A DNA stretch of 57,978 nucleotides from Coriobacteriales bacterium (lineage in GTDB: Bacteria > Actinomycetota > Coriobacteriia > Coriobacteriales > UBA8131), in assembly GCA_031256715.1 (NCBI GenBank), contig JAIRQA010000128.1:1-57978 (forward strand), in the 5' to 3' direction. Positions 2 to 55,230 of the stretch are shown here, one piece after another (position 1 is the stretch's first letter; each line of letters starts with the position of its first letter). Under the pieces are notes generated by a model. It did no database searches. It was not told the origin of the DNA and saw nothing but the letters and a program-made list of their open reading frames with translations. The position numbers were made by a program, and so were the translations under genes.

Positions 2-1036
2 GCAAAAGGTCGCTGGTTGGCAGTACTAGAATCAGATGATTTTGCCTTGCCAAAAATGCTTGAACTCTTATACAATGCCGCAATTAAGCATCAGGTTCAA
101 GTTGTAAAAGGAAACTGTTGGTTTTATTGGAGCGGAAATAAGCTTAAAGATGCATCAGAGCTTAAGAACGCTTCAGACGTTAAAGTGTTCTCTGAGCTTA
201 AGGACGCTTCAGGCGCTAAAGTGGCCTCTGAGCTTAAGGGCGCTTCAGGCGTTAAAGATAAAAAAACAAGACGATCGCGTGAACGCAAAAAATTTGTGAG
301 TCTTGTGCCGCGCAAACAGACAGGCTATGTTTTAGCGCCATTAAGTGGCAAGATTAAAGATACAGAGATCTTTTTTCTACCACCATCAATCTGGTCTGGT
401 CTTTACGAAGTAGAATTCCTTCGCAACAATAACATCCGCTTTTTAGAAACACCTGGTGCGTCTTATCAGGACACTTCGTTTAACTTCAAGGTTTGGGTAC
501 TTGCAAGTAAAGTAAACTTTATAAGCGAAGCTGTTTTGTATTACCGTCAAGATAATGAGTCATCATCTATGAACTCTAAGGCAAAGGCAGACGCTGTTGT
601 CACAGAGTTTTCCGAGATGAAAAGATTTATTCAAGCTTCAGCCAATGATGCATTTCAAGCGCAAGATAAAAGTAAACCTGAGCTAACACTGACCTTAGAC
701 AACGAGCGCTTAAGTTTGCTTTTAGCGGTTTTACGCAAAATGCAATTTGACACTTATCTTTGGAACTACGAGCGTCTTAAAAGCGATTTGCAGCTTACCT
801 TTCTAAAGTTTTTTGCCAAAGAGTTTCAAGAAACCTGTGATATGCATGCAAAAGAAGAACTCTTGTTTTTTGAGGAGTGGAAGGCTAAAGATATGCAGCT
901 GATTGTTGCAGATCCCGATAATTATCATCGCTTACGTTCAGCAGCTGGTCAGTATTCGCAAAAAGGCAAGCTAGTGCACTACTATCGCCTTGGTGGTTTA
1001 AGGCTTTTGCTTAAAATACTACGCTCAAAACTCTAA
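2..1036 (+). CDS. Glycosyltransferase family 2, 5'-truncated by window edge
   Basis: Open frame from base 2 (AKGRWLAVLESDD, GT-A acidic motif); PSIWSGLY, RFLETPGASYQD and YYRQDNESSS motifs typical of GT2; carries a repeat insertion at 141-257. Confidence 0.85.
   Translation, partial: AKGRWLAVLESDDFALPKMLELLYNAAIKHQVQVVKGNCWFYWSGNKLKDASELKNASDVKVFSELKDASGAKVASELKGASGVKDKKTRRSRERKKFVSLVPRKQTGYVLAPLSGKIKDTEIFFLPPSIWSGLYEVEFLRNNNIRFLETPGASYQDTSFNFKVWVLASKVNFISEAVLYYRQDNESSSMNSKAKADAVVTEFSEMKRFIQASANDAFQAQDKSKPELTLTLDNERLSLLLAVLRKMQFDTYLWNYERLKSDLQLTFLKFFAKEFQETCDMHAKEELLFFEEWKAKDMQLIVADPDNYHRLRSAAGQYSQKGKLVHYYRLGGLRLLLKILRSKL
141..257 (+). repeat. In-frame tandem repeat, 18-bp unit with 36-bp higher-order period
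   Basis: LKDASE/LKNASD/VKVFSE/LKDASG/AKVASE/LKGASG. Confidence 0.9.
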
Positions 1037-1263
1037 GGCAGTACAGAAAACAAGTTCCTATACTTCGTGATCTATATCTTGTAATCTATTTTCAGTAATC
1101 TTTGCGGCTTTTGGCTATGTTTTTTGGCTAATATTCATCGTAATCTAATTTCGTCATCTACTTTTCGCTTCGCCAACACTTATGCTGCAACAAACAAACG
1201 GCGCTTAACACTAAACAAACAATGCGAATAAAGGTGCATCAAAGTAAAGTATTATCTATTGTT

Positions 1264-1292
1264 GCAGGGGGGTGGGGCATCTGCTCCCCTGC
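1264..1292 (+). terminator. GC-rich hairpin between convergent genes (terminator without U-tract, or REP-like element)
   Basis: gcagggg...cccctgc stem; the inner 15 nt pair further using G-U. Confidence 0.55.
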
Positions 1293-1296
1293 GCCA

Positions 1297-1423: not shown

Positions 1424-3847
1424 CGGAGCGCCAAAAAACTTGCGATAGAGCCTGGCAGTAAGCTTAAGTAAAGGATAGCTTCTGCAAGCTAGTCGTAGCA
1501 TCATTTTGCGGTTTTTAGGCATAGATGAAGCCAGCAAGAGATTACGATTTTCGCGTACCATTGTAAGCAATTGCTGCGCAGTAGTGCGTTCATCTAACTC
1601 GCTGCTGCAGCCAAATAGAGCCATCTTTACCAAAAGGGTAAAGGGGGCACGATTTATTTTTAGCTCTGCTAAAGCGCGAAGCTCACCAGACTCCATTTTA
1701 CTTAACTCATCTAAGCGCTCGCAAGCAAACAAAAGATCGAAGTCCTTTTTTCTAAGCGGACTAGATGTGATGCCGGCAACATTAAAGAAATAATAATACT
1801 TGGGAAGGTTGCTAAAGACCATACGTTTGGCATGACTTAACGCTATATATCCAGCGGCAATGTCTTCGTTAATGCGTCCGGCGTCAAAGAGAGCAACCTG
1901 AGGAAAAGATGAGTCGTAGCTGCTGTTTTTCTCGACATTATTATTTGTAAAGCTGTCGGCAGTTGCGTCTATCATTACTGTATGTCTTGCATAAAGTCGC
2001 ATCCAAAAACCGTACTCGTTGCGACGCAGAAATTCTTTAAGGATATCCTTATTTGCAAAAACCTCTTCCTTAGGCTTCACGATAGACATCTGATGTTCAC
2101 TTGAGTTTGCAATCTCATATTTACATTCGGCGATATCGCAATCATGTTTTACTATCAAGCCATAAAGATAGCTATACATATCGCTAGCCAGCCAATCATC
2201 ACTATCTACAAATGCGATATAGCTGCCTTTGGCAATAGCAAGTCCTGTGTTACGAGCCACAGACAGTCCACCGTTTTTTCTGTGTACAACAACAATGCGA
2301 TTATCAATTGCGGCATACTGTTCGCAAATTGTTCCAGAGTCATCGGTTGATCCGTCATCAACTAGAATAATCTGCAAGTTGCGATACGTTTGCGCGAGAA
2401 CAGAATCTATACATCGGCGCAGATAACTTTGAACGTTATAAACAGGAATAATTACCGAGATTAATGGCAGTTTATCTTCTTCTAAATAGTTATTGATTTC
2501 TATAGGTGATAAATAATCTGTCGCTGCACGGGAATTGCATAAAGCATCGGCGTTGCTTGTGGGGCCGCAATAGCTTAAAGAATCGGCGCTGCTTGTAGAG
2601 CCGCAATTGCTTAAAGCATCGGCGTTGCTTGTAGAGCCGGAATTGCTAAAAGCATCAGGCTGCAAATTACTTTTTAAATTAAGAGCTGTGCTGTTATCAG
2701 GCGCTATTAGCTTAACTAAACTGGCGATGCCAATTAATGTAGAGACACCATAACTAACATGAATAAGAAAAAAGATGAGTGGCAATGCAAACACGCGTAA
2801 GTTTTTTTGCGCGCCTACCTTTTGCTTGCCTACCTCTTGTGCGTCTACCTTTTGCTTGCCTACCTCTTGCGCGCCTACCTTTTGCATTGTTAAACAAGCA
2901 CGACAACTCATTACAACTGCCGCAAGAAAATAAGCAAAGAACAAGACAGCTAGCGGCAAAGCGCTAATAGAAAAAAATAGTACAGAGCCAATAAGTAGCG
3001 CTAACACAAAAAACATTGGCACTAAATGCATTAAAGAAATGCAATGTGGACTAATACCTAACGTCCGACCAATCCAAAACCCATTCGCGGATTTTTGCCT
3101 AAGCATACTGCGCAATGACGCGCGGACATATTGTTGCGAACGAATACTGGGATCATAACAAATTTTATAGCCAAAAGACCTAATGCGCCAACTCATATCA
3201 TTGTCCTCGGTGCGCAAAAGGCGTTCATTATAATTGCCAACGTTTGCAAAAACTTCACGGCGATAGCAACCATGAAAAACCGAGTTCACATAGGTTTGCT
3301 TAAGACTTGTGCCTTCTTGTCTGTATTTTGCCGGACTAGACCCAAAGGCCGATTCTTCTGCTAAAAGCAAGACTTCACGCCAAGGCGTTGGCTGCTGCAG
3401 AACTGTAGGACGAGGTCCGCCACAACAGTATTGCTGTTTGACATTGTTACTATTGCTACCATTAAGAACAGATATGCAACTACTAATAAAGTCTTTTGGT
3501 ATCCGCGCATGAGCATCTATGCGCACAAATGCCTCACAACTATAAGCATTTAAAGCAATATTGCAGCCAGAGGCAAGAGATTTACGTGGATTACTAATAA
3601 TTTTTATGTCGAGAAAACCCTGGCGCTTTGTGTCCCCTGAACTTATGCAATCACATACGCTATTCTTAAATGCTAGCATAATAGCATGCGTTTCGTCACT
3701 AGACGCGCTATCTATAAGCAGCAACTCTATTAGTTCATGAGGATAATCTTGTGCAGCAATATCTTTAAGAAGCAGTGGCAAACATCCAGCCTCATTATGA
3801 GCAACAACTACCAGACTAATGGTACTTATAGTAGAAAGTTCAGGCAA
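1418..3847 (-). CDS. Two-domain GT2 fusion: ExoA-like GT2 with TM helices, repeat linker, second GT2 domain
   Basis: N-terminal SLVVVAHNE, RIDAH, RTEDND; hydrophobic helices; second domain ISVIIPVYN, VDDGSTD, FVDSDD. Confidence 0.85.
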   Translation of the reverse strand: MPELSTISTISLVVVAHNEAGCLPLLLKDIAAQDYPHELIELLLIDSASSDETHAIMLAFKNSVCDCISSGDTKRQGFLDIKIISNPRKSLASGCNIALNAYSCEAFVRIDAHARIPKDFISSCISVLNGSNSNNVKQQYCCGGPRPTVLQQPTPWREVLLLAEESAFGSSPAKYRQEGTSLKQTYVNSVFHGCYRREVFANVGNYNERLLRTEDNDMSWRIRSFGYKICYDPSIRSQQYVRASLRSMLRQKSANGFWIGRTLGISPHCISLMHLVPMFFVLALLIGSVLFFSISALPLAVLFFAYFLAAVVMSCRACLTMQKVGAQEVGKQKVDAQEVGKQKVGAQKNLRVFALPLIFFLIHVSYGVSTLIGIASLVKLIAPDNSTALNLKSNLQPDAFSNSGSTSNADALSNCGSTSSADSLSYCGPTSNADALCNSRAATDYLSPIEINNYLEEDKLPLISVIIPVYNVQSYLRRCIDSVLAQTYRNLQIILVDDGSTDDSGTICEQYAAIDNRIVVVHRKNGGLSVARNTGLAIAKGSYIAFVDSDDWLASDMYSYLYGLIVKHDCDIAECKYEIANSSEHQMSIVKPKEEVFANKDILKEFLRRNEYGFWMRLYARHTVMIDATADSFTNNNVEKNSSYDSSFPQVALFDAGRINEDIAAGYIALSHAKRMVFSNLPKYYYFFNVAGITSSPLRKKDFDLLFACERLDELSKMESGELRALAELKINRAPFTLLVKMALFGCSSELDERTTAQQLLTMVRENRNLLLASSMPKNRKMMLRLACRSYPLLKLTARLYRKFFGAPV
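2531..2657 (-). repeat. In-frame 36-bp tandem repeat (about 3.5 copies) in the inter-domain linker
   Basis: DAFSNSGSTSNA/DALSNCGSTSSA/DSLSYCGPTSNA/DALCNS. Confidence 0.9.
2807..2885 (-). repeat. In-frame 30-bp (2x15) tandem repeat between TM helices
   Basis: QKVGAQEVGK/QKVDAQEVGK/QKVGAQ. Confidence 0.9.
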
Positions 3848-4658
3848 CTGTGCCCTCTGTTAGGCACTTTAGAGCATTAAAATCATGCGATGCACGCTCA
3901 CTAATATCTTCTGGCTTAGGCTGGCACTTCAAAACGTTAAAATCCTGTGTCGCGTTCTGCTTAATGGCTTCTGTTATTGGCTGGCACTTCTGGGCATTAT
4001 CAGCATGATCTGAGTCAGCAATAAGACGTTTGCCGACAGGAGACTCAAAAACATCGCGTTGCAGCAGCGCAACGATAAATGTGCGCAAGAAAATGCGCAA
4101 ATCAAGCATGAAGCTGATATTTTTTACGTAATAGATATCTAGTGCCAAGCGGTCGTGCCAGGCAATGGCATTGCGACCATGGGTTTGCGCATAGCCTGTA
4201 AGCCCAGGGCGAACCAGTAGCTTTAAGTGTTCTTCCCCCCGATAAAGCGCAACTTCTTCGGGAAGATCTGGCCTTGGGCCAACAAAACTCATATCGCCTT
4301 TTATAATGTTAATTACCTGTGGAACTTCATCTAAACTGGTTTTACGCAAAAATGCGCCTATGCGTGTTTGGCGAGGGTCATCAGGCGCATTGTACGTCGA
4401 TCCATCTGCCTCTTTAATGTCTGGAGCATTTACACGCATCGAACGGTATTTATGCATCACAAAATAACGTCCATCTTTGCCTACGCGAATAGAATCATAC
4501 ATTGCCGGGCCTGCGTCTTCGCTTCTTATAAGCGGCGCAACAACAAGGTGCTCAACTGCAACAACTGGCAATATTGCAACTCCAAATGCTATGTCTAGGG
4601 CTCTTTTTATGTAACGTGCATAAAAACTGTTATGTGGTTCGCTTCTCAGAATAACCAT
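3840..4658 (-). CDS. Priming phosphoglycosyl (sugar) transferase, Bac_transf family
   Basis: KRALDI, KYRSM, DDPRQTRIGAFLRKTSLDEVPQ, GDMSFVGPRP, PGLTGYAQ; C-terminal extension of 60-bp repeats (ggcactt at 3863, 3923, 3983). Confidence 0.92.
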   Translation of the reverse strand: MVILRSEPHNSFYARYIKRALDIAFGVAILPVVAVEHLVVAPLIRSEDAGPAMYDSIRVGKDGRYFVMHKYRSMRVNAPDIKEADGSTYNAPDDPRQTRIGAFLRKTSLDEVPQVINIIKGDMSFVGPRPDLPEEVALYRGEEHLKLLVRPGLTGYAQTHGRNAIAWHDRLALDIYYVKNISFMLDLRIFLRTFIVALLQRDVFESPVGKRLIADSDHADNAQKCQPITEAIKQNATQDFNVLKCQPKPEDISERASHDFNALKCLTEGTVA

Positions 4659-8077: not shown

Positions 8078-8137
8078 TGCTTTGTTAAGTCTTTGTGCCG
8101 TTGCAAATAACATGGCACTTGCCACATTTTTTAGCGC

Positions 8138-8243
8138 TTCTCTAACTCGCTAATCTTTGCAAGTCGTTCGCCGCATTAGGAGTACCAACTTAAAACGCTA
8201 TCGCAGTTTCTCTAACTCGCTAATCTTTGCAAGTCGTTCGCCG
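8138..8243. repeat. Perfect 36-bp direct repeat (8138-8173, 8208-8243) around a 34-bp spacer, duplicating the rpiB 3' end
   Basis: ttctctaactcgctaatctttgcaagtcgttcgccg occurs twice. Confidence 0.95.
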
Positions 8244-8641
8244 TGACGCCCGCCTACAAAATCAGTGCCAAAAAATGCATCAATGATCGCCTGATTGTCT
8301 TCAACAGAAATAAATCGTGCAGATAATGCTAGTATATTAGCATCGTTATGTTCTCTTGCAAGTTTGGCAAATTCAGGTGTCGTTACATTTGCGGCTCGAA
8401 TCCCGGCAATCTTATTTGCCGCAATTGACATGCCTATGCCGGTGCCGCAGATTAACACTCCCCCATCTGCCTTGTTGGCCAATATTGCCAGAGCAACTGC
8501 TTGAGCATAATCCGGATAATCCACACGTTCGTCATTAGCAGGTCCAAGATCGCAAACAATGTGCCTCTTTTTTTCTAAGTACTTCACAAGGGCTTGTTTC
8601 TGAAAATAACCAGCATGGTCTGAGGCAATAGCAATTCTCAT
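8198..8641 (-). CDS. rpiB: Ribose-5-phosphate isomerase B
   Basis: IASDHAG, VDYPD, CGTGIGMSIAANK, HNDAN, GGRH; ATG 8641 follows GGAG. Confidence 0.93.
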   Translation of the reverse strand: MRIAIASDHAGYFQKQALVKYLEKKRHIVCDLGPANDERVDYPDYAQAVALAILANKADGGVLICGTGIGMSIAANKIAGIRAANVTTPEFAKLAREHNDANILALSARFISVEDNQAIIDAFFGTDFVGGRHGERLAKISELEKLR

Positions 8642-8743
8642 AGTTGTCTCCAATCCTGCACTTCATAGCGGCTAAAACTAAGTATGAAAGTTAACCGGCT
8701 TTTCATGCTTCACCTTTCTGTCTTTTGCCTGTGTCTTGTTAGC

Positions 8744-32142: not shown

Positions 32143-32216
32143 TGGCTGGGGCAGCAGGATTCGAACCTACATAGCTGGCACCAAAAACCAGAGTCCTGCC
32201 ATTGGACGATGCCCCA
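32143..32216 (-). tRNA. tRNA-Gln (anticodon UUG), CCA encoded
   Basis: tggggca acceptor, gtcc/ggac D-arm, ctggt-ttTTGgt-gccag anticodon arm, GTTCGAAT T-loop, tgcccca-g-cca. Confidence 0.96.
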
Positions 32217-40232: not shown

Positions 40233-40322
40233 TTACATCCTCCTCCAATTACCCCGCGGCTAAGTTTATGCCACAGATTGTACATTAAACTTTGTATTAA
40301 AGTTCATTACCCCGACATACCC

Positions 40323-41054: not shown

Positions 41055-41123
41055 TATTTTGCCCTATCTTCTTAATGTAAGAAATCAAACACTATTAGCT
41101 TAACTTTGTTAAAACGTGGCTTT

Positions 41124-42803: not shown

Positions 42804-42857
42804 AGCAAAACTTCCTTAGAACGGCAACTTACAGTTATGAAATATTTATGAATAATA

Positions 42858-45266: not shown

Positions 45267-45404
45267 TATTGTATTCTAAGCGATTTTATTACAAAATTTT
45301 AGCGCCATTGCGGTATCATTATTTCAACGGAAATGAGTCTTACGCCAAAATATAAAGCAAGACGCAACCTTTTAACTAAAACCTTAGGCACTTAAGGAGT
45401 AAGC

Positions 45405-45770
45405 ATGGCAACACCAATTGTGGGGATAGACTTTAATGCTGCATTGGCTCAATTTAAGCTAGAGAGAGTTTTTTTGCGCATTCTAACAAAGTATCGCGAT
45501 AGCATTCCCGACGTCTTAGAACAACTAAGTAATTATGTAGAGAAGAAAACCCCTGTTGAAGGTCTTGATGACTACATAACAACTGTGCATGGACTAAAAG
45601 GGGCAAGCTATGGCATTTTTGCCAATGATTTAGGCGATTTAGCTAAAGATTTAGAGTTTGCCGCAAGGGATGGGCGCCTTGACTTTGTAAGTAGCAACAA
45701 TGGCAAGCTTGTATTGGAAACCAATGCTTTACTTAAGCGAATCGATAGTTATTTAAATGCAGCATCCTAG
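45405..45770 (+). CDS. Stand-alone Hpt (histidine phosphotransfer) domain protein
   Basis: YITTVHGLKGAS...A..L...AKDLE.AA, matching the Hpt of the kinase at 16025; AAGGAG RBS. Confidence 0.82.
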   Translation: MATPIVGIDFNAALAQFKLERVFLRILTKYRDSIPDVLEQLSNYVEKKTPVEGLDDYITTVHGLKGASYGIFANDLGDLAKDLEFAARDGRLDFVSSNNGKLVLETNALLKRIDSYLNAAS

Positions 45771-46689
45771 CATATCAATATGCTATCTTAATAGCGTAGA
45801 CTCTACCAATGACTACTGCAAACGCCTGCTTGCTAAAGATGGTGTTTTAAAATGCGCACAAAAAAATGCCCAAGACACTGTGCAGACAAGAGCAGAGAAT
45901 TTTTCGCAAAATAATGCAGATGAATTTGTACGAACAACAGAAGCAATAAAGTTGCCTTTTGCAGTAGTTGCCCTAGAACAGACCAAAGGTCGCGGTCGGC
46001 TTGGTCGCAAATGGCACTCCCCTCCTGGTGGTGCATATATATCATTGGCACTAATGGTTAATCATCCCAACGAAAATCCAGACGCATTAGCTGCCGTCTC
46101 GCCACTAAGCGCATTAGCTGTTTGCAAGGCTCTAGAGAAATATCGCTGTGCTAGTGTGAAATGGCCAAATGACGTTGTCTGCGCAAACGAAAAACTGGCG
46201 GGAATATTGGTTGAACGCATTGGCACTGTAAAAAATGACAGCGCAATAATAGTTATAGGTGTTGGCGTAAATGTGGTAGACACAAATTTTGCAGACTTAA
46301 AATTAACAAGTAAAGACAAAATACAGCTATCGCCAACCTTTGTTACCAATGGTCAGCAGCCAACTGGCTTTAATAACCCTAATAGGCAAAGCAACGAAAA
46401 CAATCTCAACAATTTAATTTACGAACTTTCAGAAACAATAATCGCCTCACTACATGATCATATTTGCGAATGGCAAGAAAATGGCCACTTGTTTTCTAGG
46501 TTTATTAGTGACTACAAAGCCAAACTTGTCACATTGGGACAAGATGTTATTGTGCGCAACGCACTTGGCGAAGTTATCGCCTCGGGCAAAGCTATAGATG
46601 TAGGCGCAAATGGCGAGCTTGTCTTAAGGTCTGGTGACGTCGTAAGTAAAGTTGCCACTGGCGAAGTCACTTTACGCGATATTGCTTAA
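45757..46689 (+). CDS. birA: Biotin protein ligase without HTH (class I BirA)
   Basis: VDSTN, QTKGRGRLGRKW, KWPND, KLAGIL, GVGVN. Confidence 0.92.
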   Translation: MQHPSISICYLNSVDSTNDYCKRLLAKDGVLKCAQKNAQDTVQTRAENFSQNNADEFVRTTEAIKLPFAVVALEQTKGRGRLGRKWHSPPGGAYISLALMVNHPNENPDALAAVSPLSALAVCKALEKYRCASVKWPNDVVCANEKLAGILVERIGTVKNDSAIIVIGVGVNVVDTNFADLKLTSKDKIQLSPTFVTNGQQPTGFNNPNRQSNENNLNNLIYELSETIIASLHDHICEWQENGHLFSRFISDYKAKLVTLGQDVIVRNALGEVIASGKAIDVGANGELVLRSGDVVSKVATGEVTLRDIA

Positions 46690-46729
46690 TGACAGCACAA
46701 ATTGCATTTTTCTGCGTTATACTAGAAAT

Positions 46730-48202
46730 ATGAGTGAATCTAAATCCAATACACAAGTAGATATTCAAGAGAATATTAACGCCAAACAGGTTAACCGTTT
46801 AGGAACAGCAAAAATTTCGCGGCTATTGCTGGAGTTTGCCATACCTTCTATTATTGGCTTAGTGGTTAATGGGCTTTACAACCTTGTAGACTCGATATTT
46901 TTAGGTCATGGTGTAGGCGAAGTTGGGTTGGCAACCGCTACTGTTGCGATGCCAACAATGATTTTTTCGATGGCTATGGGTGTGCTTATAGGTGCTGGTG
47001 GCAATGCTTTGGCAGCACTAAAGCTAGGTGAGGGCAAACATGATGATGCAGAGAAAGTTTTGGGCAATGCCTTTACATTAACTGTTGTTGCGGCGGTAGT
47101 CTGCATGCTTTTGGTAAATGTCTTCATGGACCCGGTGTTACGGATTTCTGGCGCTACAGAGGTTACTTGGGAACACGCTCATACTTTTGTTCGCATCATC
47201 TCTTTTGGCTTTATCTTGCAGTTCTTTGGCATGGGTTTTAATAACTTCATTCGTACTGCGGGCGATCCAAACCGTGCGCTTTACACAATGGTGGCAGGTA
47301 CGGTACTTTGCATCATTTTAAATTATTTATTTGTTATTGTCTTTAAATGGGGAATTGCCGGTTCTGCCTGGGCTACTGTTATTGGTCAAGCACTTAGCGC
47401 CGGCCTTGTGCTTTGGTACTTTGCATTCTCGCGCAAAGCGCCATTTAAGCTTAAGCGCAAACATCTACCTATTGTTCCGCGCTTAGTTGGCTCGATATTT
47501 GCCTTGGGCTCTGCCTCTTTTGTGCTGCAAATTGCAGCGGCAATATTAAATCTGATACTTAACAATCAACTTGTATACTACGGCGGTTTAGATCCTATTG
47601 GCGCCGAAGGCGCACAGGCAGCAATAGGTGTTGTTCAGCGTGTGGCAATGTTTGCATTTTTTCCCATACTTGGCGTAGCCATGGCAGCTGCCCCACTGTT
47701 TGGTTATAACTATGGAGCTCAGAACTTTGTTCGTGTACGTTCTGCTATCTTGCTTTCTATGGCTTGGGTTGCAGCCATTGGCGTATTCTTCTGGATTCTA
47801 ATTCATCTTTTTCCGGAACAAATATGCATTATCTTTGGCATTAAAGACGAACTTTTGCTCTTTACCATAGATGCACTTAAGGTTCAGGTTTTCTTTATGC
47901 CCTTAGTTGGTCTTCAGGTTGTTGCAGCAAACTACTTCCAGTCTTCAGGGCAACCATTAAAGAGCATGTTTTTGTCATTAACGCGGCAATTGCTGTACCT
48001 GATACCACTTTTGTATCTACTGCCTCTTTTAGCGACACATCTTAATGTGCCTGGACTATCGGCAATGGACAGTCCCCTAGAGGGTTTGTATTATGCGTTT
48101 CCCATTGCTGATATTTTATCTATTGTTACAGCAGGAACATTAATGCTTCTAGAATTTCGCAAACTTGGACGCAGAATTTCCTTATCCACACAAATAACAT
48201 GA
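46730..48202 (+). CDS. MATE family efflux transporter (MepA-like)
   Basis: LYNLVDSIFLG, GIAGSAWATVIGQ, GYNYGA; about 12 hydrophobic segments; ATG 46730. Confidence 0.92.
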   Translation: MSESKSNTQVDIQENINAKQVNRLGTAKISRLLLEFAIPSIIGLVVNGLYNLVDSIFLGHGVGEVGLATATVAMPTMIFSMAMGVLIGAGGNALAALKLGEGKHDDAEKVLGNAFTLTVVAAVVCMLLVNVFMDPVLRISGATEVTWEHAHTFVRIISFGFILQFFGMGFNNFIRTAGDPNRALYTMVAGTVLCIILNYLFVIVFKWGIAGSAWATVIGQALSAGLVLWYFAFSRKAPFKLKRKHLPIVPRLVGSIFALGSASFVLQIAAAILNLILNNQLVYYGGLDPIGAEGAQAAIGVVQRVAMFAFFPILGVAMAAAPLFGYNYGAQNFVRVRSAILLSMAWVAAIGVFFWILIHLFPEQICIIFGIKDELLLFTIDALKVQVFFMPLVGLQVVAANYFQSSGQPLKSMFLSLTRQLLYLIPLLYLLPLLATHLNVPGLSAMDSPLEGLYYAFPIADILSIVTAGTLMLLEFRKLGRRISLSTQIT

Positions 48203-48382
48203 TATTATGCTAGCTATAAAGCTGCACTTGCTTTTCTTGTTGCCAGCAAAAATTAAAAGTCGCAGCGTATTACATCATCTAGAACTAAAAAAACACGACT
48301 GCACTTAAAAAATCCACTATAAGTTGCATCACGTTGCCCCCGCTTAACTAGCACTTAACAGCTTTTGCCATACATTTTTTGT

Positions 48383-48411
48383 TTGCCAAGTTTGTTTTTA
48401 AGTGGTATTCT
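48383..48411 (+). promoter_or_regulatory. Housekeeping-sigma promoter of the pilin gene
   Basis: TTGCCA-17 nt-TATTCT with extended -10 TG. Confidence 0.6.
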
Positions 48412-48428
48412 GATTGCAATATGGGAGC

Positions 48429-48510
48429 GGGTGGTTTGCTAGCACACTATTATTGTCAGATTTTATGTGGTCTAACAATGTCTGAAATTAGGTGTGTGTG
48501 TAAGCAACCC
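48429..48510 (+). ncRNA. Candidate structured 5' leader of the pilin mRNA
   Basis: gggtggtttgc..gcacac pairs with gtgtgt..gtaagcaaccc, enclosing an attgtcaga/tctaacaat hairpin. Confidence 0.4.
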
Positions 48511-48533
48511 AATAATCTTAGAAAGGAATCATC

Positions 48534-49118
48534 ATGTGGGAGTTGATTAAGCAAAAAACAGATTTACGGGCGGAATCACAGACAGATTTACAGGCAAATT
48601 TACAAGCAACTTTACGCAAGAAAAACGCAAGAAAAGGCTTCACGCTAATTGAAGTCATCGTAGTTTTGGTAATTTTGGCAATCCTTGCTGCTATTGCCAT
48701 TCCAGCGCTAACAGGATACATCGACAAAGCAGATCAGCGGGCGGTGATTTCGCAGGCAGCAACAGTAAGAACAGCATTGCAGGCGATTGCCTCAGATAGC
48801 TATTCTGCTGGGGGCAGCAGCTTAGATGACACCTACAGTGGCTCAACAAACTTAAATAGTGGGCCTGAGCCTGCAACTCCTGCTGCAGACACTATTTATG
48901 GCTATAATCCGGTTTCTGGAGCTGCGCCTTCTGCTGGTAATCCAAAAACTTCGACTATTGCCGCAGAGGTCACCGCACTTAATGGCAGCACAACCATTGC
49001 TCCGGCAGATTTAACAGGAATAGAATACGATGGACGTACATTAACTAATTTTGAAATTAAGATTAGCGGCAAAACGGTTACTTTTGACAGCGGTAACTAT
49101 ACTGTGAGCACGCCATAA
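48534..49118 (+). CDS. Type IV pilin-like protein (class III signal)
   Basis: KG/FTLIEVIVVLVILAILAAIAIP; GAAAGGA RBS; no Cys. Confidence 0.9.
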   Translation: MWELIKQKTDLRAESQTDLQANLQATLRKKNARKGFTLIEVIVVLVILAILAAIAIPALTGYIDKADQRAVISQAATVRTALQAIASDSYSAGGSSLDDTYSGSTNLNSGPEPATPAADTIYGYNPVSGAAPSAGNPKTSTIAAEVTALNGSTTIAPADLTGIEYDGRTLTNFEIKISGKTVTFDSGNYTVSTP

Positions 49119-49127
49119 TTAACGCAA

Positions 49128-49245
49128 TTAGGCTTTGATGTTAGCATGACTTTGTTGTTAATTAGGTTTTGCTGCTTACGTGACTTTGTCGTTACCAAGG
49201 CTTTTTCGTTAACAAGGTTTTGTTGTTAACAAGGTTTGTTGTTAA
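49128..49245. repeat. Degenerate 16-17 bp tandem array downstream of the pilin
   Basis: aacaaggttttgttgtt-like units, about 7 copies. Confidence 0.8.
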
Positions 49246-49342
49246 GCATGAACGTAGGGGGTATGCAGTCGGTGGGGCGCAAGCAACAGAAAGCGTGCGA
49301 GCAGGTTTGTTGTTAAGCATGAACGTAGGGGGTATGCAGTCG
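49232..49342. repeat. Perfect 40-bp direct repeat (49232-49271, 49303-49342) around a 31-bp spacer
   Basis: aggtttgttgttaagcatgaacgtagggggtatgcagtcg occurs twice. Confidence 0.95.
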
Positions 49343-49356
49343 CGTGCCCCCTACGT
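49323..49356 (+). terminator. Strong hairpin between convergent genes (terminator or REP-like element)
   Basis: acgtagggggtatgc-agtc-gcgtgccccctacgt, 15-bp stem with two G-U pairs. Confidence 0.65.
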
Positions 49357-49400
49357 CAAGGCATTAAGAAGTACAAGTATCAAACAACACCTAAACTTCA

Positions 49401-49979
49401 TTAAGGAATAACTTTAGAAAGTTGTGCTTGCAGATTGCTAACTAGGTCGCTACTGCCCGCTATTGGCACAAAACCAAATTCATCTGAAATTAGAAAACAA
49501 GCATTGGCTTTGCTTAATAATTCTGCACACGAAGCCACAGCCTTTACGGGAATTTTTTGTGTCTGAGCCAAATCGCGTGTAAGAGTGTCCATTGCACAAA
49601 CAAGTTCATCTGTTGCAGCAATAAGTTCATCTTCATAATGCAACCAAACAGTTCCTGCATAATTAGCAAGTTTAATCCCTTGATTTTCTGTGCAGATAAT
49701 ATCTTCTAAACTTAATATTGGGCGTTCAGAAACGTCTTCTAACGAGACCGTTATCTCTTTTTTTGGGTCTATATGCAAACAAAGCACTGCGTCGCGCTTG
49801 CTATTGTCTAAGAGGTTGGCTTGCGCCCATTCAAGTCGCTCGTGTACCCAAGCATGCAATGGAGCAGGTAGGTCTAGAGGCAATAGCGAGCGCAAGTGTC
49901 GTTGACGCAATGGCAGATTTCCCGCAACAACACGCCAACGTAAATCTATAGCATTATTTTGTAAGTCTTCTTTAGGCAC
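49401..49979 (-). CDS. Hypothetical protein, possibly a degenerate class IV aminotransferase/PabC-like fold
   Basis: RHLRSL and ANACFLISDEFGFVPI recall class IV motifs; starts 11 bp after the purH stop. Confidence 0.5.
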   Translation of the reverse strand: MPKEDLQNNAIDLRWRVVAGNLPLRQRHLRSLLPLDLPAPLHAWVHERLEWAQANLLDNSKRDAVLCLHIDPKKEITVSLEDVSERPILSLEDIICTENQGIKLANYAGTVWLHYEDELIAATDELVCAMDTLTRDLAQTQKIPVKAVASCAELLSKANACFLISDEFGFVPIAGSSDLVSNLQAQLSKVIP

Positions 49980-49990
49980 AAGACACCACT

Positions 49991-51898
49991 TTAATGCCGA
50001 AAGTGACGATGACCGGTAAAGACAAGTGCAATGCCAGCTTCGTTAGCGGCAGCTATGACTTCCTCGTCACGAACAGAACCGCCGGGTTGAATTACGGCAA
50101 CAACGCCACCATCAGTTAACACTTTAAGTGAATCTGCAAATGGCATAAACGCGTCGCTGGCGGCTACAGCACCTTGAGCTAAATCACCAGCTTGTTTTAT
50201 GGCAAGCTCTGCCGAATTAACACGATTTGGCTGACCGGCTCCAATACCTATACTAGCATAATCTTTAGCTATTAAAATAGCATTGCTTTTAACTGACTTG
50301 CAAGCACGCCAGGCAAACAGTAACTCATCAAATTGTTCTGGTGTTGGCTTTACATCTGTAGGAAAAGAAAACTCGGCAGGATTTTCGTTTACAGAGTCGG
50401 CGGTCATAGCAAGTATGCCACCTTCTATACTGCGATATTCTAGCGACGCACCTGCAGGATTTATGCCCCCTGTTACAAGTATACGAGCACTAGGTTTTTG
50501 TTTAAGCAACTCTAACGCGCCATCTTCATACTCTGGCGCAACCATAGCCTCAATAAACTGACCGTTGTTAAAAATTGCTTGTACCAGTTCTGTTGTCACT
50601 GTTCTATTAAAAGCCATAACTCCGCCAAATGCGCTAACCGGGTCGCAATCATGTGCTTTTTGATAAGCAGCTGTTATGGAACTGTCTAAAGCTATTCCAC
50701 ATGGCGTAAGGTGCTTAACAATCACTGCCGCTGGCTTATCATTGGCACTGCAAAACTCTCGAACTGCCGCCCAAGCAGCATCTAGATCTAAATAATTATT
50801 GTAAGAAAGCTCCTTACCCTGAAGTTGCTTTGCGTTGGCAAGCAAATATTCGCTATTCTGCTTACCACAATCTGTGCTTGACCCAACGTAAAATGCTGCC
50901 TGCTGGTGCGGATTTTCTCCATAGCGTAAATTGGCGGACTTTCGTAAAAAGAGACGCTTATCGTTAGCAAAACTGTTAGTAAAACTGTTAGCAAAGCTGT
51001 TAGCAAAGCTGTCGCGTTGTGAATCGTCACCCTTTTGTGCATCATCACCCTTTTGCACATAACCACCATTTTGCGAATCACTACCCTGTGTGGCAAGCCA
51101 ACTATAAATAGCATTGTCATAGGCAGATGTTAGTTTAAATACCTCTAAAGCTAAGCTTTGACGCGTAGCATAACTTAAGCAACCGCCAAGCTCATGCATC
51201 TCTGCTATTATGCTAGCATAACTTTCGGGTGCAGTTACAACCGCAACCGATGCATGGTTTTTGGCAGCAGAGCGCAACATAGACGGTCCGCCGATATCTA
51301 TATTTTCTATGGCAAGTTCATAAGTAACGTCTGCGCGAGCAATTGTGGCTTCGAAGGCGTAAAGATTAACCACTACCATGTCTATCATGCCTATACCATG
51401 CTCGCTAGCTTGTTGCATGTGCTCTTGCAAGTCGCGCCTTGCAAGTAGACCACCATGTACGCGCGGGTGTAAAGTCTTTACTCGCCCATCCATCATCTCG
51501 GGAAAGCCGGTTAGTTCATCGATGGTCTTAACTGGCAATCCCGCATCTATTAATACCTTAGCTGTACCTCCGGTAGAGACAAGCTCCACAGCAAATTGCT
51601 CATGTAAGGCTTTAGCGAAGTTAACTATGCCTGATTTGTTGGTAACAGAGAGCAATGCGCGCTTAATTATCGGCTCTGATTTTAGGTCAGATTTGGTCTT
51701 TGTATCCAAATCCAGCTTAAGACCAGAATCTAGATTTGCGCAAGCGTCAGACTTAAGGTCAGAATCGGTATTTGCGCAAGCGTCAGACTTAAGACCAGAA
51801 TCGGGATTTGCGCAAGCGTCAGAATTAAGACCAGAATCGGGATTTGCGCAAGCGTCAGACCTAAGGTTGTATTCGGTTTTATTAAGAGCATCAGACAT
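49991..51898 (-). CDS. purH: Bifunctional AICAR transformylase/IMP cyclohydrolase
   Basis: RALLSV, STGGT, GRVKTLHP, IDIGGP, LRYGENPHQ, LSYNN, KSNA, SDAF, QPGGS, RHFRH. Confidence 0.97.
   Translation of the reverse strand: MSDALNKTEYNLRSDACANPDSGLNSDACANPDSGLKSDACANTDSDLKSDACANLDSGLKLDLDTKTKSDLKSEPIIKRALLSVTNKSGIVNFAKALHEQFAVELVSTGGTAKVLIDAGLPVKTIDELTGFPEMMDGRVKTLHPRVHGGLLARRDLQEHMQQASEHGIGMIDMVVVNLYAFEATIARADVTYELAIENIDIGGPSMLRSAAKNHASVAVVTAPESYASIIAEMHELGGCLSYATRQSLALEVFKLTSAYDNAIYSWLATQGSDSQNGGYVQKGDDAQKGDDSQRDSFANSFANSFTNSFANDKRLFLRKSANLRYGENPHQQAAFYVGSSTDCGKQNSEYLLANAKQLQGKELSYNNYLDLDAAWAAVREFCSANDKPAAVIVKHLTPCGIALDSSITAAYQKAHDCDPVSAFGGVMAFNRTVTTELVQAIFNNGQFIEAMVAPEYEDGALELLKQKPSARILVTGGINPAGASLEYRSIEGGILAMTADSVNENPAEFSFPTDVKPTPEQFDELLFAWRACKSVKSNAILIAKDYASIGIGAGQPNRVNSAELAIKQAGDLAQGAVAASDAFMPFADSLKVLTDGGVVAVIQPGGSVRDEEVIAAANEAGIALVFTGHRHFRH
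50963..51058 (-). repeat. In-frame 18-bp and 12-bp repeats in the PurH inter-domain linker
   Basis: QKGDDA QKGDDS; SFAN SFAN SFTN SFAN. Confidence 0.9.
51676..51865 (-). repeat. About 5 x 36-bp in-frame repeat forming the PurH N-terminal extension
   Basis: L[RNK]SDACAN[PTL]DS[GD] four times plus a degenerate copy. Confidence 0.95.
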
Positions 51899-51920
51899 AA
51901 TTTGTAGCTATCCTTTCTTC

Positions 51921-52790
51921 CTAACACAATATGCCAAATAGTAACAGCATTACAACTATTGTCAGAGTGCTAATTAGCTCGCAAACGGTGAGTTGTGTGT
52001 TAGCAAGGCGTGTGCGGTTCTCGCCTTGATAACAACGACTCTCCATAGCAAGAGCTAACGTGTCGGCACGCCTAAATAGACTAACAAAAAGCGGAATTAA
52101 AACAGGCACATAGGCACGAAGTCGACGTATGGGACCGCCCTGATTAAAGCGTTGCCCGCGTGCAGACATGGCAAAGACCAACTTTTCTGCCTGCTCTGAA
52201 ATTAAGGGAATAAAGCGCAACGCAATAGAAAACATCATGGCAACATCTTCAACTGGCACTTTGATGCGAGCAAGCGGACGTAAAAGTTGCGAGATAGAAC
52301 TGGTAAGTGTAACAATAGAGCTTGTTATTGTTAACAGCGTTGTGGCAGAAATCAAAGCAAAGATACGCGTGACAAAGAAGAGTCCCTCTAAAGCTCCAAC
52401 CGGTTTAAAAGCAAAGCTTCCCCAAATAGGAACAAAATCAGGAATACCATCAAGAAAAACGCTCGCAAAAAAATCAGGAATTAAAGGCGGCAGATTAAGT
52501 GGCTCTGCTGTTGTCACAGAAGGGTCATACGTAAGTGTAAACGCATGTGCGCAAAAAGTAAAAGCTAGGATAAATGCCACAGGTAGCAACCCTCTAAAGG
52601 CCATAACGAGTGAAATCCGCGCAATAAAATAGCATGCTAGCAAGATAGCAACACCTATTATCATTGCAAGCGAAGTTTGAATCAAAAAAAGTGCTGCCAC
52701 ATAAGCAGCGAGTAACAGTAATTTCATGCGAGCATCAAGTCGGTGCAGTATGCTATCGCCAGCGATATATTGTCCAAGTGGCATGCGCAT
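51921..52790 (-). CDS. ecfT: ECF transporter transmembrane component T
   Basis: GQYIAGDSILHRLDARMK, SIALRFIP, ARG, LALAMESRCY. Confidence 0.92.
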   Translation of the reverse strand: MRMPLGQYIAGDSILHRLDARMKLLLLAAYVAALFLIQTSLAMIIGVAILLACYFIARISLVMAFRGLLPVAFILAFTFCAHAFTLTYDPSVTTAEPLNLPPLIPDFFASVFLDGIPDFVPIWGSFAFKPVGALEGLFFVTRIFALISATTLLTITSSIVTLTSSISQLLRPLARIKVPVEDVAMMFSIALRFIPLISEQAEKLVFAMSARGQRFNQGGPIRRLRAYVPVLIPLFVSLFRRADTLALAMESRCYQGENRTRLANTQLTVCELISTLTIVVMLLLFGILC

Positions 52791-54991
52791 TACAAGCCTG
52801 CCCTGACTGCATGATATCTGCTATTTATTCTTAGCGCACGACTGGCTACTGTCGCTACATCTAAACTATATTCATTGGGCGACATACCCATACGCTGCTG
52901 AAAATCCAAAAGCGCCGGTAGCTTTAAGCCAGCATCAACCAATGTAAACGCAGAGGCAACCAATTCAGCCGCAGAGCCGGAAAACGTCACCCTACCATGC
53001 TTTAGTACACTCACTTTATCGGCCAATGGTAAAAAGGCGTCAATATCGTGGCTAACAAGCACAACGGCTACGCCGCTTGCGCGAAGTTTCATTAGCATAC
53101 CAACAATCTGAGCGACACCATGACTATCTAAGCCTGAAGTAGGTTCATCAAATAGCACTACACGCTGCCGCATTGCCAAGACAGTTGCAATAGCGACGCG
53201 TCGAGCCTGCCCGCCACTTAGTGTAAATGGCGAGCGTGAAGAAAAATCACTAGGACTTAAGGCAACATCTTCTAAAGCGTCGTTAACGTATTCGCGCAAA
53301 AGAGCAGCATCGTTACCGCGACCTGTATTGCGAAGACCAAATGCGATATCGTCAAAAACAGTGGTGGCAAATAGCTGATCTTCAGGATTTTGAAAAACCA
53401 AACCAATATCGCCTGGCAGTGGTGCAATACCAGAGTCGCAAAGAGTTACACTCCCGCAAGAAGGTGGCAAAAGACCCGCAGCTATTCTTAGAAGCGTCGA
53501 TTTCCCCGAACCATTTACACCAACCAAAAGATGAAGTTCGCCCGCCGCAATTTTAAGATTTACGTTATTTAACACTTTTTTGCTTACGTCAACTTTTTTG
53601 CTACCCGCTTCGCTGTAGGCAAATGAAACATTTTTTATGTTGAGAAGCACCTCGCGCTGCTTAAAGCCATCGCTGTTGTTGCTCTTAGTTATGTTGAGAA
53701 GTGCCTCACGCTCTTTAGTGTCGCCGCTGTCGCTAGCCTTAATGTCTAGAGTCTCGCGCTGTTCTAAAGCACCATTATTGTTAGTTAATGAGCTTAAAGC
53801 CTCGCTGTGACATTTAGCGCCATAGACTGAGGTCTTCTCGACATTAAAAATTTTTACTTCATGTTGCTTGTCATTGCAGCAATGTAAGTGCGATGCGTGT
53901 TGCGACATATTAGTTTGCTTTGCGCCGGTATGGCTTAAATCTCTGTTTGCGGCATCAATTTTAGAGGTAGCGATCGCATTAGCTCCTCTAAGTATGGCGT
54001 TTGTTAAACCTGCAGGTGAAAGTTGCTTAGTGTTAATAGACAGACCAAAACTAGAAAGTTGATGCGCCAATTGCAAAAGCGGACTAACGCTTATAGCCAG
54101 CGACTTAAACTCTTGTGTGTTTTGCAAGTATAGCTCCCACAATTTTTTGCTGCTTCCACTGAATGCAACCTGTCCATTTTGCAGCACCACTACTTCATCT
54201 GCGCGCAAGGCTTCATCTAAGCTGTGGGTAACAAGCAGCAGCCCATGCCCACTAGCACTAAGCACAGCAAGCGCTTTTTGAACTTCGCTTGCGGCAGTAG
54301 TATCTAACATCGAGGTTGGCTCATCTAATACCAGATAGTCAGGCTGCATAGACAGACAAGAGGCTATCACTAACCTCTGCTTTTGACCACCGCTAAGACT
54401 ATTAGGGTCGCGCTTGCCAAAATCTTCAGTTGTAAAACCTACAGAAACCAGTGCCTGTGCCACGCGTTTTTCTATCTCGTCTGCTGGCACACAAAGATTT
54501 TGAGGCCCAAAAGCAACTTCGTCTTTTACAGATGTCGTAAGAATCTGGTCATCTGGATCTTGCATGACTAATGCGACATGGCGGCGTATTGATTCATAAT
54601 TTGTAATGTCTGCCGCATCTGCTACGTCATTTGTCATAACGCTAACATGCGTTTCTGTTTTTTCTTCGGTTGTTTTTATAACTGCTGCTTTTGCTGCAGC
54701 ACCTGCAAAAGCATCAAAAACAGCAACGTCTGCTGAGTTGTGCAAAGCGTCGCCAACAGAGTAGTCTACAGGGTTGTTCACAGGATTGTCCGCGGCATCG
54801 GCTATGATGCTAACAGTGCCGCTGTCAGGAATTAAGAGTGCGTTTGCCAATCTAGCAAGTGTAGATTTTCCAGAGCCATTAGCACCTAAAATTGCAAGGG
54901 TACTTCCTTTTGCTACAGCGCACGAAACATGCTTTAGCGCTGGAATAGTGTCAGTTGGATATGTAAATGTTATAGCATTAAAACTTAGCAT
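52790..54991 (-). CDS. ecfA: Fused tandem ECF ATPase (EcfA-EcfA')
   Basis: Two ABC cassettes (GxNGSGKST, LSGGQ, DEPTS each); likely start MLSFNAITFTY at 54991; repeat insertions at about 53637-53760 and 54683-54800. Confidence 0.88.
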   Translation of the reverse strand: MLSFNAITFTYPTDTIPALKHVSCAVAKGSTLAILGANGSGKSTLARLANALLIPDSGTVSIIADAADNPVNNPVDYSVGDALHNSADVAVFDAFAGAAAKAAVIKTTEEKTETHVSVMTNDVADAADITNYESIRRHVALVMQDPDDQILTTSVKDEVAFGPQNLCVPADEIEKRVAQALVSVGFTTEDFGKRDPNSLSGGQKQRLVIASCLSMQPDYLVLDEPTSMLDTTAASEVQKALAVLSASGHGLLLVTHSLDEALRADEVVVLQNGQVAFSGSSKKLWELYLQNTQEFKSLAISVSPLLQLAHQLSSFGLSINTKQLSPAGLTNAILRGANAIATSKIDAANRDLSHTGAKQTNMSQHASHLHCCNDKQHEVKIFNVEKTSVYGAKCHSEALSSLTNNNGALEQRETLDIKASDSGDTKEREALLNITKSNNSDGFKQREVLLNIKNVSFAYSEAGSKKVDVSKKVLNNVNLKIAAGELHLLVGVNGSGKSTLLRIAAGLLPPSCGSVTLCDSGIAPLPGDIGLVFQNPEDQLFATTVFDDIAFGLRNTGRGNDAALLREYVNDALEDVALSPSDFSSRSPFTLSGGQARRVAIATVLAMRQRVVLFDEPTSGLDSHGVAQIVGMLMKLRASGVAVVLVSHDIDAFLPLADKVSVLKHGRVTFSGSAAELVASAFTLVDAGLKLPALLDFQQRMGMSPNEYSLDVATVASRALRINSRYHAVRAGL

Positions 54992-55162
54992 TTTTTGTAT
55001 TTTTACGCCTAATAATCTGTTCTGGCACTTCTTATTTGCCTGTTGTCGGGTACAATATAATCGGTTCATAACATGGTACCAAATTTGTATTATAAGCAAT
55101 GTTGCTAGAAATGCACCAATTTGATTGATGGCAAAATCTTGTGGAGCACCCACGCTATCGCC

Positions 55163-55230
55163 TATGCAATCATGCACGCAGTCTTGCGTACAGACATGCA
55201 CGCAGATATGCATACAGATATGCATACAGA
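55163..55230. repeat. 12-bp tandem array in the divergent ecfA/antiporter intergenic region
   Basis: atgcacgcagat / atgcatacagat units. Confidence 0.85.

Follow-up and report, generated by a model that had tools for sequence, protein, structure and literature searches.

Introduction

Tandem repeats in Borgs, which are giant linear extrachromosomal elements of Methanoperedens, lie both in genes and in spacers. Every genic unit, or almost every one, has a length divisible by three, compared with 14–38% of intergenic units. The arrays are further described as flanked by partial repeats, independent in origin, nearly absent from the genomes compared, variable within populations, and encoding disordered amino acid tandem repeats, or aaTRs (Schoelmerich et al., 2023; PMC9879509). 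Here we examine short tandem duplications in a 57,978-bp contig of an uncultured Coriobacteriia metagenome-assembled genome (MAG), for which Borg repeats appear to be the closest described analogue and which could be regarded as their chromosomal bacterial counterpart. The whole contig (label C139) is called the window, and the MAG (2.66 Mb, 145 contigs, 45% GC, 78% complete) is called G000. An earlier note made from the window had listed repeats in about 15 genes and proposed an ongoing, lineage-specific duplication process filtered only for reading frame.

Several other systems offer points of comparison. Contingency loci of host-adapted pathogens have units of 1–8 nt, and a change in copy number shifts the frame and turns genes on or off. 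Flap-endonuclease mutants (yeast rad27, or the 5′-nuclease of E. coli polA) produce short duplications bounded by short direct repeats. The tandem duplicator phenotype of cancer consists of kilobase to megabase duplications and is linked to BRCA1, CDK12 and CCNE1; it has only a name in common with G000, and the scale and mechanism are unrelated. G000 resembles contingency loci in having slippage-prone repeats in genes of a host-associated bacterium, but its units are at least 9 bp and 94% of its coding arrays keep frame (40 of 649 periods are not multiples of three). Like bacterial minisatellites, or variable-number tandem repeats (VNTRs), the arrays consist of head-to-tail copies of locus-private units of about 9–100 bp, but their density is far higher than that of ordinary bacterial VNTRs. 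Our search of the literature on tandem repeats in termite Coriobacteriia and on bacterial short-duplication mutators found no account of the repeats of this lineage, and the matching passages of a 2023 paper on low-complexity regions (PMC10120016) hold no taxon-level data.

The pattern reported below is probably the product of slippage-type short tandem duplication at microhomologies, with a raised rate or retention of new copies, followed by selection within genes.

A genome-wide excess of tandem arrays

Tandem Repeats Finder (TRF) applied to the whole G000 assembly returns 1971 rows that merge into 1290 arrays, corresponding to 485 arrays/Mb at a score of at least 50 and to 4.0% of bases, where a first-order Markov simulation yields 5 arrays/Mb by chance. 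At a score of at least 80, the density over the 2.66 Mb is 297/Mb. At this higher score, the 75 contigs that reach 15 kb have a median of 293/Mb (quartiles 216–403), with GC contents of 42.8–47.9%; 72 of them have at least 60/Mb and three fall below. Given this even density and narrow GC range, the repeat excess is a genome-wide property, neither a local island nor a binning mixture. The window, with 16 arrays at a score of at least 50 (276/Mb) and 190/Mb at a score of at least 80, belongs to the lower quartile of its own genome. The original observation is confirmed as a whole and extends across the genome.

By our own open reading frame (ORF) calls, 462 of 1936 ORFs, about a quarter, contain at least one array. 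Tandem repeats made by slippage are ordinary in themselves. What is out of the ordinary for a bacterial genome is their extent in G000, with 4% of the DNA and about a quarter of the ORFs affected, which makes it an extreme case of slippage-made minisatellites. Unlike the extrachromosomal Borgs, G000 carries the trait on a bacterial chromosome-scale MAG, in housekeeping genes and on nearly all of its large contigs.

Privacy, frame, age and nesting of the duplications

The earlier statement that each unit is private to its locus holds across the genome. Specifically, consensus units of 12 bp or more number 1187, of which 1125 are unlike those of every other array, and because only 62 fall into families (10 small dispersed ones), a single dispersed element is rejected as the source. 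As a separate observation, dispersed intergenic families (17, 12, 10, 7 and 6 arrays; contigs C107, C118, C124, C131, C135, C12, C120 and others) have GC-rich, hairpin-like cores. They look like elements of the repetitive extragenic palindrome (REP) or miniature inverted-repeat transposable element (MITE) type, distinct from the private tandem duplications.

Our ORF caller is crude and takes the most upstream start, yielding 1936 ORFs of at least 100 aa that span 85% of bases. On this basis, 649 arrays lie within ORFs (287/Mb), 506 lie between ORFs (1276/Mb) and 135 straddle an ORF border, such that arrays are 4.4 times as dense between ORFs as within them. The period is a multiple of three for 609 of the 649 coding arrays but for only 201 of the 506 intergenic arrays (40%), a division like that reported for Borgs (PMC9879509). 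Thus, a frame filter operates in coding DNA only, as the earlier note had proposed.

A scan for perfect runs gives the youngest view of the process. G000 contains 683 perfect duplications with a period of at least 9 bp (614 two-copy, 64 three-copy and 5 higher). Within ORFs, 309 of 334 have periods that are multiples of three. Non-coding periods are spread about evenly between 9 and 14 bp, become rarer at greater lengths and have no peak at 36 bp; this broad spectrum without a fixed length leads us to reject transposon footprints. Many of the two-copy perfect duplications run on into part of a third copy, over 3 nt or more: 38% at periods of 9–11 bp, 62% at 12–14, 68% at 15–23 and 48% at 24 or more, where about 2% is expected by chance according to our own calculation. 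Flanking partial repeats are likewise described for Borg arrays. The flanking microhomologies of the perfect duplications revealed no recurrent motif and have background composition.

Most arrays are older. As first described for the window, copies range from perfect to decayed: 137 of the 1290 arrays match at 100%, while 1153 are below 100%, 696 below 90%, 230 below 80% and 46 below 70%. This differs from the essentially perfect repeats described for Borgs, since most G000 arrays have decayed and been re-duplicated.

The earlier note had also suggested an 18/36/72-bp length preference, and this does not survive as a primary property. Period-36 arrays number 126, and 72 of these also have TRF rows at 9, 12, 18 or 24 bp. 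The 36-bp consensus units have an autocorrelation of 0.43 at a shift of 12 and 0.41 at a shift of 18, against a baseline of 0.23–0.31, and the 24-, 30- and 48-bp units likewise self-correlate at half their length. Young perfect duplications instead peak at 9–14 bp, and in G004, a repeat-rich relative in the same family, 36 bp does not form a peak, with 5 of 148 arrays. With nested sub-periods, no peak among young non-coding duplications and none in G004, 36 bp is rejected as a primary mutational length. The peak is largely a higher-order product of nested re-duplication, in which units of 9, 12, 15 and 18 bp double or triple and so produce both the preference for multiples of six and the 18/36/72 series.

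Repeat density in relatives and unrelated bacteria

The closest relatives of G000 are Coriobacteriia MAGs. Samples of these and of unrelated loci were passed through the same TRF pipeline, with the following densities at a score of at least 80:

Non-Coriobacteriia loci around pheT (unrelated background), 459 kb: 15/Mb
G024, another family of the order, 205 kb: 5/Mb
G025, another family of the order, 204 kb: 10/Mb
G004, same family as G000, 394 kb: 183/Mb
G007, same family, 60.6 kb: 363/Mb
G008, G010, G011, G017 and G018, same family, 36–82 kb each: 107–149/Mb
G003, same family, 22 kb: 93/Mb
G012, same family, 84 kb: 71/Mb
G001, G002, G005, G006, G009 and G013–G016, same family, 19–322 kb each: 0–48/Mb

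G000 therefore exceeds unrelated bacterial loci about twenty-fold (297 versus 15/Mb), and other families of the order by as much or more. The same ranking is obtained with perfect duplications of period at least 12 bp, at 145/Mb in G000, 89/Mb in G004 and 5–15/Mb in G024, G025 and the background. Between genes, G000 and G004 have 1260 and 948 arrays/Mb, respectively, compared with 92–179/Mb in G009, G005, G024, G025 and the background, which makes the intergenic excess of G000 7- to 14-fold.

The trait is thus not specific to the lineage of G000, contrary to the original proposal. Repeat-richness is patchy within the family, and each repeat-rich genus has its own arrays. In a single-gene purH tree, sister pairs tend to be alike in density (G004 and G010; G009 and G016; G005 and G002) and many forks are open; this pattern fits a heritable trait with several shifts, although it is a hint only, drawn from one gene. 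Many G007 arrays carry a dispersed motif (CCCCCACTGTCATCCCGAG and variants), so some of the repeats in G007 belong to a different type.

A published survey supplies an outside scale. In Table 1 of that work, 119 reference bacteria have medians of 0–3 satellites/Mb, and the richest bacterial replicon, a Burkholderia chromosome, reaches 23/Mb, mostly from 6–8-nt microsatellites (Subirana and Messeguer, 2019; PMC6749651). We re-implemented the satellite criterion approximately (a 10-mer occurring four times at constant spacing) in another program, so the comparison is a rough one. By this measure G000 has 25.2/Mb and G004 20.3/Mb, whereas the five other sets of at least 200 kb (G009, G005, G024, G025 and the background) have 0–4/Mb. 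Four small samples yield none in three cases and one locus in 34 kb of G007 (29/Mb). On this rough criterion and with respect to that table, G000 equals or surpasses the richest bacterial replicon of the survey.

Arrays in the window

The window was scanned with TRF at a score of at least 30, giving 52 rows, and our own offset scan added decayed cases. NCBIfam profile matches confirm the gene names used in the earlier note. Nearly every repeat on the earlier list was recovered; the weakest cases are tlyA and nusB, which are both decayed, and nusB is seen mainly as a peptide motif. Homologues or orthologues described as gapped are those with gaps opposite the array.

144–257, plus strand: GT2 glycosyltransferase (GT), 36-bp array with 18-bp sub-period, 3.2 copies (TRF, 83% match, score 158)
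1058–1101, intergenic: 14-bp array (TRF)
1297–1423, intergenic: 16/17/33-bp array with perfect sub-stretches at 1355–1414 (TRF; perfect-run scan)
2533–2656, minus strand: 809-aa GT fusion, 36-bp array with 18-bp sub-period (TRF, 87%, score 192); faces a gap in the only homologue found (n = 1)
2805–2885, minus strand: GT fusion, 30/15-bp array (TRF, 91%)
3871–3990, minus strand: priming glycosylphosphotransferase, C-terminal tail, decayed 60-bp duplication (own scan, 68%); peptide motif repeated; 2 of 2 homologues gapped
8103–8242, no strand assigned: decayed 70-bp duplication, left part intergenic, right end inside the 3′ end of the rpiB ORF (8198–8653, minus) (own scan, 66%)
9950–10019, minus strand: prmC, residues 127–150, 30 bp × 2.3, between the N-terminal and methyltransferase domains (TRF, 92%); 2 of 3 homologues at least 50% gapped
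11576–11660, minus strand: pheT, C-terminal extension, 36 bp × 2.3 (TRF, 75%); 12 of 12 orthologues at least 50% gapped
13057–13074: pheT, 9-bp array (TRF/offset scan)
14064–14120, minus strand: pheT near the N-terminus, residues 72–90, 15/30-bp array (TRF); 12 of 12 orthologues at least 50% gapped
21869–22012, minus strand: recN, 72-bp duplication made of 18-bp units (TRF, 18 bp × 5.8; own scan, 72 bp, 79%); 2 of 2 homologues gapped
24528–24581, minus strand: tlyA, decayed 27-bp duplication within an insertion (own scan, 70%); NCBIfam match breaks after residue 168
27556–27699, minus strand: nusB, C-terminal extension, strongly decayed 72-bp duplication (own scan, 56%); a peptide motif recurs at a spacing of 24 residues; the protein has 199 residues, and the NusB profile match stops at 141
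33196–33345, minus strand: 2256-aa surface protein, Pro/Gly-rich 36/45-bp array (TRF)
40977–41049, minus strand: fchA, N-terminus, 30 bp × 2.4, two copies perfect (TRF; perfect-run scan); a related strain has one unit less, judged by an X2 contig with a loose end (see below)
44109–44185, minus strand: CPA1 antiporter, perfect 36 bp × 2.1 duplication with a 5-nt partial third copy (TRF, 100%; perfect-run scan)
48578–48635, plus strand: long prepilin leader, 12- and 11-bp arrays (TRF; translation)
49126–49341, intergenic: 17/34-bp (49126–49251) and 71-bp (49200–49341) arrays (TRF; own scan)
50963–51073, minus strand: purH, inter-domain linker, residues 276–312, 12 bp × 4.2 (50963–51012) and 18 bp × 3.2 (51017–51073) (TRF; alignment; structure model and X3 contig, see below)
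51716–51865, minus strand: purH, N-terminal extension, residues 12–61, 36 bp × 4.2 (TRF, 90%, score 251); without counterpart in 10 of 12 orthologues; predicted local distance difference test score (pLDDT) about 30
53634–53741, minus strand: ecfA–ecfA fusion, decayed 54-bp duplication in the linker that joins the ATPase halves (own scan, 70%)
55171–55232, minus strand: ecfA, N-terminus and start region, 24/12-bp array (TRF; X3 contig)

Effects on proteins

Repeats encode 19,433 of the 732,733 residues (2.65%) of the G000 proteome. S, Q, N, T, A and P are enriched 1.3- to 1.6-fold among these residues, and I, F, W, Y, L and M are depleted to 0.31–0.52. They are commonest in the first fifth of proteins, an N-terminal bias that is partly uncertain because the ORF caller picks the most upstream start. 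On the coding strand, repeats differ from the remaining sequence in A (29.7% versus 27.4%), T (17.4% versus 27.2%) and C (27.0% versus 21.2%). Whereas the Borg units are A-enriched, those of G000 are T-poor and C-rich in coding DNA and match the background composition elsewhere.

Reciprocal-best-hit pairs with five relatives (57–161 pairs each) reveal that 56–64% of repeat residues in G000 face gaps in the orthologue, as opposed to 8–13% of other residues. A share of this size is expected if one of the two or three copies is ancestral, and it indicates local duplication of pre-existing sequence. In the reverse direction, 50% of the repeat residues of G004 face gaps in G000, compared with 5.7% of its other residues, which argues that G000 and G004 built their arrays independently, as judged from these alignments. 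In this independent origin, and in the near lack of the arrays in the genomes compared, G000 again resembles the Borgs. Conserved orthologues are not spared, with 1.5–2.7% of their residues encoded by repeats.

Many window proteins are long for their families: PurH has 635 aa versus 510 in the family profile, PheT 951 versus 798, and NusB 199 versus 131. Most arrays in window genes lie opposite gaps in those homologues that were found; the two sets of purH arrays are gapped in 9 and 10 of 12 orthologues. The antiporter (0 of 1) and pilin (0 of 2) arrays do not face gaps in the homologues found, and for ecfA no homologue was in hand. The ECF transporter ATPase gene (52790–55225, minus) encodes an 811-aa fusion of two ATPase halves, with repeats at the N-terminus and in the linker between the halves.

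For the N-terminal arrays of purH, fchA and the pilin, translation hinges on the start codon chosen. The upstream ATG of purH at 51898 lies 22 nt past the stop of the preceding gene and is preceded, at a distance of about 12 nt, by a Shine-Dalgarno-like AAAGGA; from this start context the extension is probably translated. An AlphaFold2 model of PurH, computed from a 28-sequence alignment, is of good confidence for the protein as a whole, with a mean pLDDT of 79. The score is below 50 at residues 1–72, 276–290, 300–302 and 304–306, and block means are 45–51 over residues 271–310. These low-confidence segments coincide with the 36-bp array at the N-terminus and with those of the linker. In this one modelled protein, and in keeping with the polar composition seen genome-wide, the repeats are predicted to form disordered segments in termini and inter-domain linkers, as described for Borg aaTRs. 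In PurH of G007, the inter-domain linker that carries repeats in G000 contains a separate long insertion rich in Ala and Gly, and the same permissive site was therefore struck independently.

Selection thus screens the frame, composition and position of the arrays, and these filters together indicate that selection on proteins is still effective. The earlier interpretation is partly supported: it was right in outline that local, frame-blind duplication inflates termini, loops and linkers of core proteins after filtering by selection, and right about the frame filter itself, but the filter is not for frame only, since composition and N-terminal position are also filtered and coding density is 4.4-fold lower.

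Related strains in assembled metagenomes

Copy numbers were compared with Logan contigs. The termite-gut run X1 contains 96% of sampled words and is probably the source run, and four runs of a second gut study contain 14–18%. Contigs from three of the latter (X2–X4) are mostly 95–99% identical to the window, and over positions 40001–56000 the related strain in these runs differs mainly by transitions.

Contigs of X1 end at four arrays (fchA, the antiporter, the intergenic 17-mer and the purH N-terminus) because k-mer assemblies stop at repeats longer than k, so X1 is uninformative on copy number. Contigs of the second study, in contrast, cross the purH linker arrays (50866–51149) and the ecfA N-terminal array (55063–55384), gap-free and at the same length; the crossing contig is from X3 in both cases. 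This provides independent support that these arrays are real. One X2 contig reaches position 41019 and continues with 13 letters that start at 41050 in the window, which is exactly one 30-bp fchA unit fewer. Another X2 contig has a loose end at 44133, in the antiporter array, that has no match in the stretch examined upstream of that array.

Variation in unit number, described within populations for Borg arrays and between strains for VNTRs, may occur here too: the contigs give a single candidate case, the fchA contig end, and two other arrays are equal in length. The duplication process appears to be ongoing, as the earlier note had held, on the basis of the 137 arrays at 100% match, the 683 perfect duplications and the one fchA difference.

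Candidate causes and competing explanations

In the mechanism that we consider probable, short stretches, mostly 9–18 bp when new, would be duplicated in tandem at any sequence, blind to frame or gene. New copies would most likely arise where short direct repeats (microhomologies) let replication slip or the template misalign. The arrays would afterwards diverge and re-duplicate as multi-unit blocks to give the higher-order periods of 24, 30, 36, 48 and 72 bp, while selection would purge most genic events, leaving survivors that are in frame, polar, disordered and located in termini or linkers. Both the slippage mechanism and a raised input (or reduced removal), as opposed to relaxed selection alone, are what we infer from these patterns.

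A replication or repair defect was sought by profile searches of up to 31 genomes (G000–G030), which represent 13 families of the order and include 14 genomes with a completeness of 90% or more. Neither MutS1 (TIGR01070) nor NucS (PF01939) has a match above cut-off in any of the 31, including the repeat-poor G024 and G025, and MutL has none in the five genomes searched; the sampled order seems, from these searches, to lack both known mismatch-repair sensors. Since the lack of MutS1 and NucS is shared by repeat-poor genomes, it cannot explain the repeat trait, and G000 differs in this respect from mismatch-repair-deficient mutators, in that the absence of MutS1, NucS and MutL is not specific to the repeat-rich lineage. 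A MutS-like ORF on contig C39 of G000 (1889–2542, minus) scores 69.6 bits, far under the MutS1 cut-off, has one in-frame TAA inside the match, and is probably a MutS paralogue. Ku was not found in five genomes and a family-B polymerase in none of 31, and a Y-family polymerase is present in 30 of 31; absences from G000 itself are weak evidence, given a MAG that is 78% complete. The lack of a family-B polymerase match in G000 is a further difference from Borgs.

Each of the alternatives accounts for part of these data. Ordinary slippage input combined with relaxed purifying selection and drift, by which a small host-bound population retains slightly deleterious insertions, would suit the termite-gut habitat, the coding fraction of 0.849 in G000 (0.86–0.91 in relatives), proteins that are 0.5–9% longer than their orthologues, and non-repeat residues that are more often gapped than those of the partner in four of five comparisons. 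The excess is equally large outside genes, however, where selection is weak in every genome, which favors higher input or lower removal over relaxed selection on proteins alone. Together with the effective filtering of frame, composition and position, and the existence of repeat-poor relatives in the same family that include MAGs of like size and quality, this makes relaxed selection an unlikely explanation. A heritable change in the processing of lagging strands or single-stranded DNA (ssDNA), whether in flap removal of the Pol I 5′-nuclease or flap endonuclease (FEN) type, in ssDNA exonucleases or in polymerase processivity, could also act as a short-duplication mutator. The footprint of 9–70-bp duplications bounded by short direct repeats is like that of flap-endonuclease mutants, similar densities in sister pairs of the single-gene purH tree fit a heritable trait, and xseA was not found in the repeat-rich G004 (91% complete). 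Unlike in those mutants, the Pol I 5′-nuclease domain (PF02739) of G000 is intact by profile match, at 181.6 bits over positions 1–164 of 164 versus 184.3 bits in the repeat-poor G024. RecJ, XseA, DnaQ-like exonuclease domains, RecA and UvrD-type helicases are also present in G000 by profile search, although such matches bear on presence and not on activity, and the shared lack of MutS1 and NucS does not explain the trait. We assign this account a low probability.

Retention of the repeats because they are useful, as disordered linkers, surface variation or intergenic regulatory arrays, is distinctly improbable. Surface and envelope proteins of the window do carry arrays (glycosyltransferases, the pilin and the 2256-aa surface protein), and the Borg paper argues for selection on aaTRs (PMC9879509), but density is highest outside genes, where there is no frame preference, point mutation decays the arrays, the units are mutually unrelated, and housekeeping enzymes are affected at about the proteome average (1.5–2.7% of orthologue-pair residues versus 2.65% overall). 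That the arrays are an artefact, produced when a short-read MAG was assembled or binned, is scarcely credible: contigs of X1, which is probably the source run, do break at four arrays, and the assembly has 145 contigs, but 1153 of 1290 arrays are diverged and assemblers do not invent diverged copies. Furthermore, second-study contigs traverse the purH linker and ecfA arrays, density is uniform over contigs of narrow GC range, and a frame rule confined to coding DNA is biological.

Slippage with raised input or retention, followed by selection in genes, must itself be set against several considerations. No replication or repair gene tested tracks repeat density, such that the repair-gene inventory called for by the earlier note leaves a raised mutation input without a molecular correlate among the genomes searched. 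The slippage step is read from the pattern, which would look the same if copies arose by flap ligation or by another route of duplication. Evidence for strain differences in copy number is the 13-letter loose end of a single contig. For several relatives the sample was only 19–85 kb, which makes their densities noisy, and high-GC DNA gives more low-scoring TRF hits, two loci of 69–71% GC reaching about 450/Mb at a score of at least 50. With a crude ORF caller and a 78% complete MAG, some arrays counted as intergenic may be coding (40% have periods that are multiples of three, not 33%), and some N-terminal arrays may be untranslated.

A bolder proposal is possible, though we regard it as doubtful: in several genera of this uncultured insect-gut Coriobacteriia family, the replisome or the processing of the lagging strand may be in a heritable mutator state for short tandem duplications. 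This state would be akin to the process that forms Borg repeats and would continually seed disordered segments into about a quarter of proteins, core enzymes included. If such a state exists, repeat-rich and repeat-poor sister genera provide a natural contrast for finding the responsible factor. Regardless of cause, the family spans repeat-poor to repeat-rich members with independent arrays, and comparisons among them could inform on how fast short duplications arise or how well they are retained, as well as on the entry of new disordered regions into conserved enzymes. In practice, annotation and orthology pipelines will meet inflated proteins laden with low-complexity sequence in these MAGs, and short-read assemblies will break at the arrays.

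Other features of the window

An Rfam search over the window, including the intergenic arrays, detected no RNA family except one tRNA at 32146–32216 (minus). This tRNA lies directly downstream of the gene for the 2256-aa surface protein (32439–39209, minus), whose sole family match is a Listeria/Bacteroides-type repeat (NCBIfam). The product of xseB (27110–27535, minus) is 141 aa long, compared with 57–81 aa for the four matched xseB profiles. Its family match covers only residues 4–53, approximately, and is followed by a long acidic tail, rich in Ser, Asp and Glu and without a clear tandem repeat, that may consist of fully decayed repeats.

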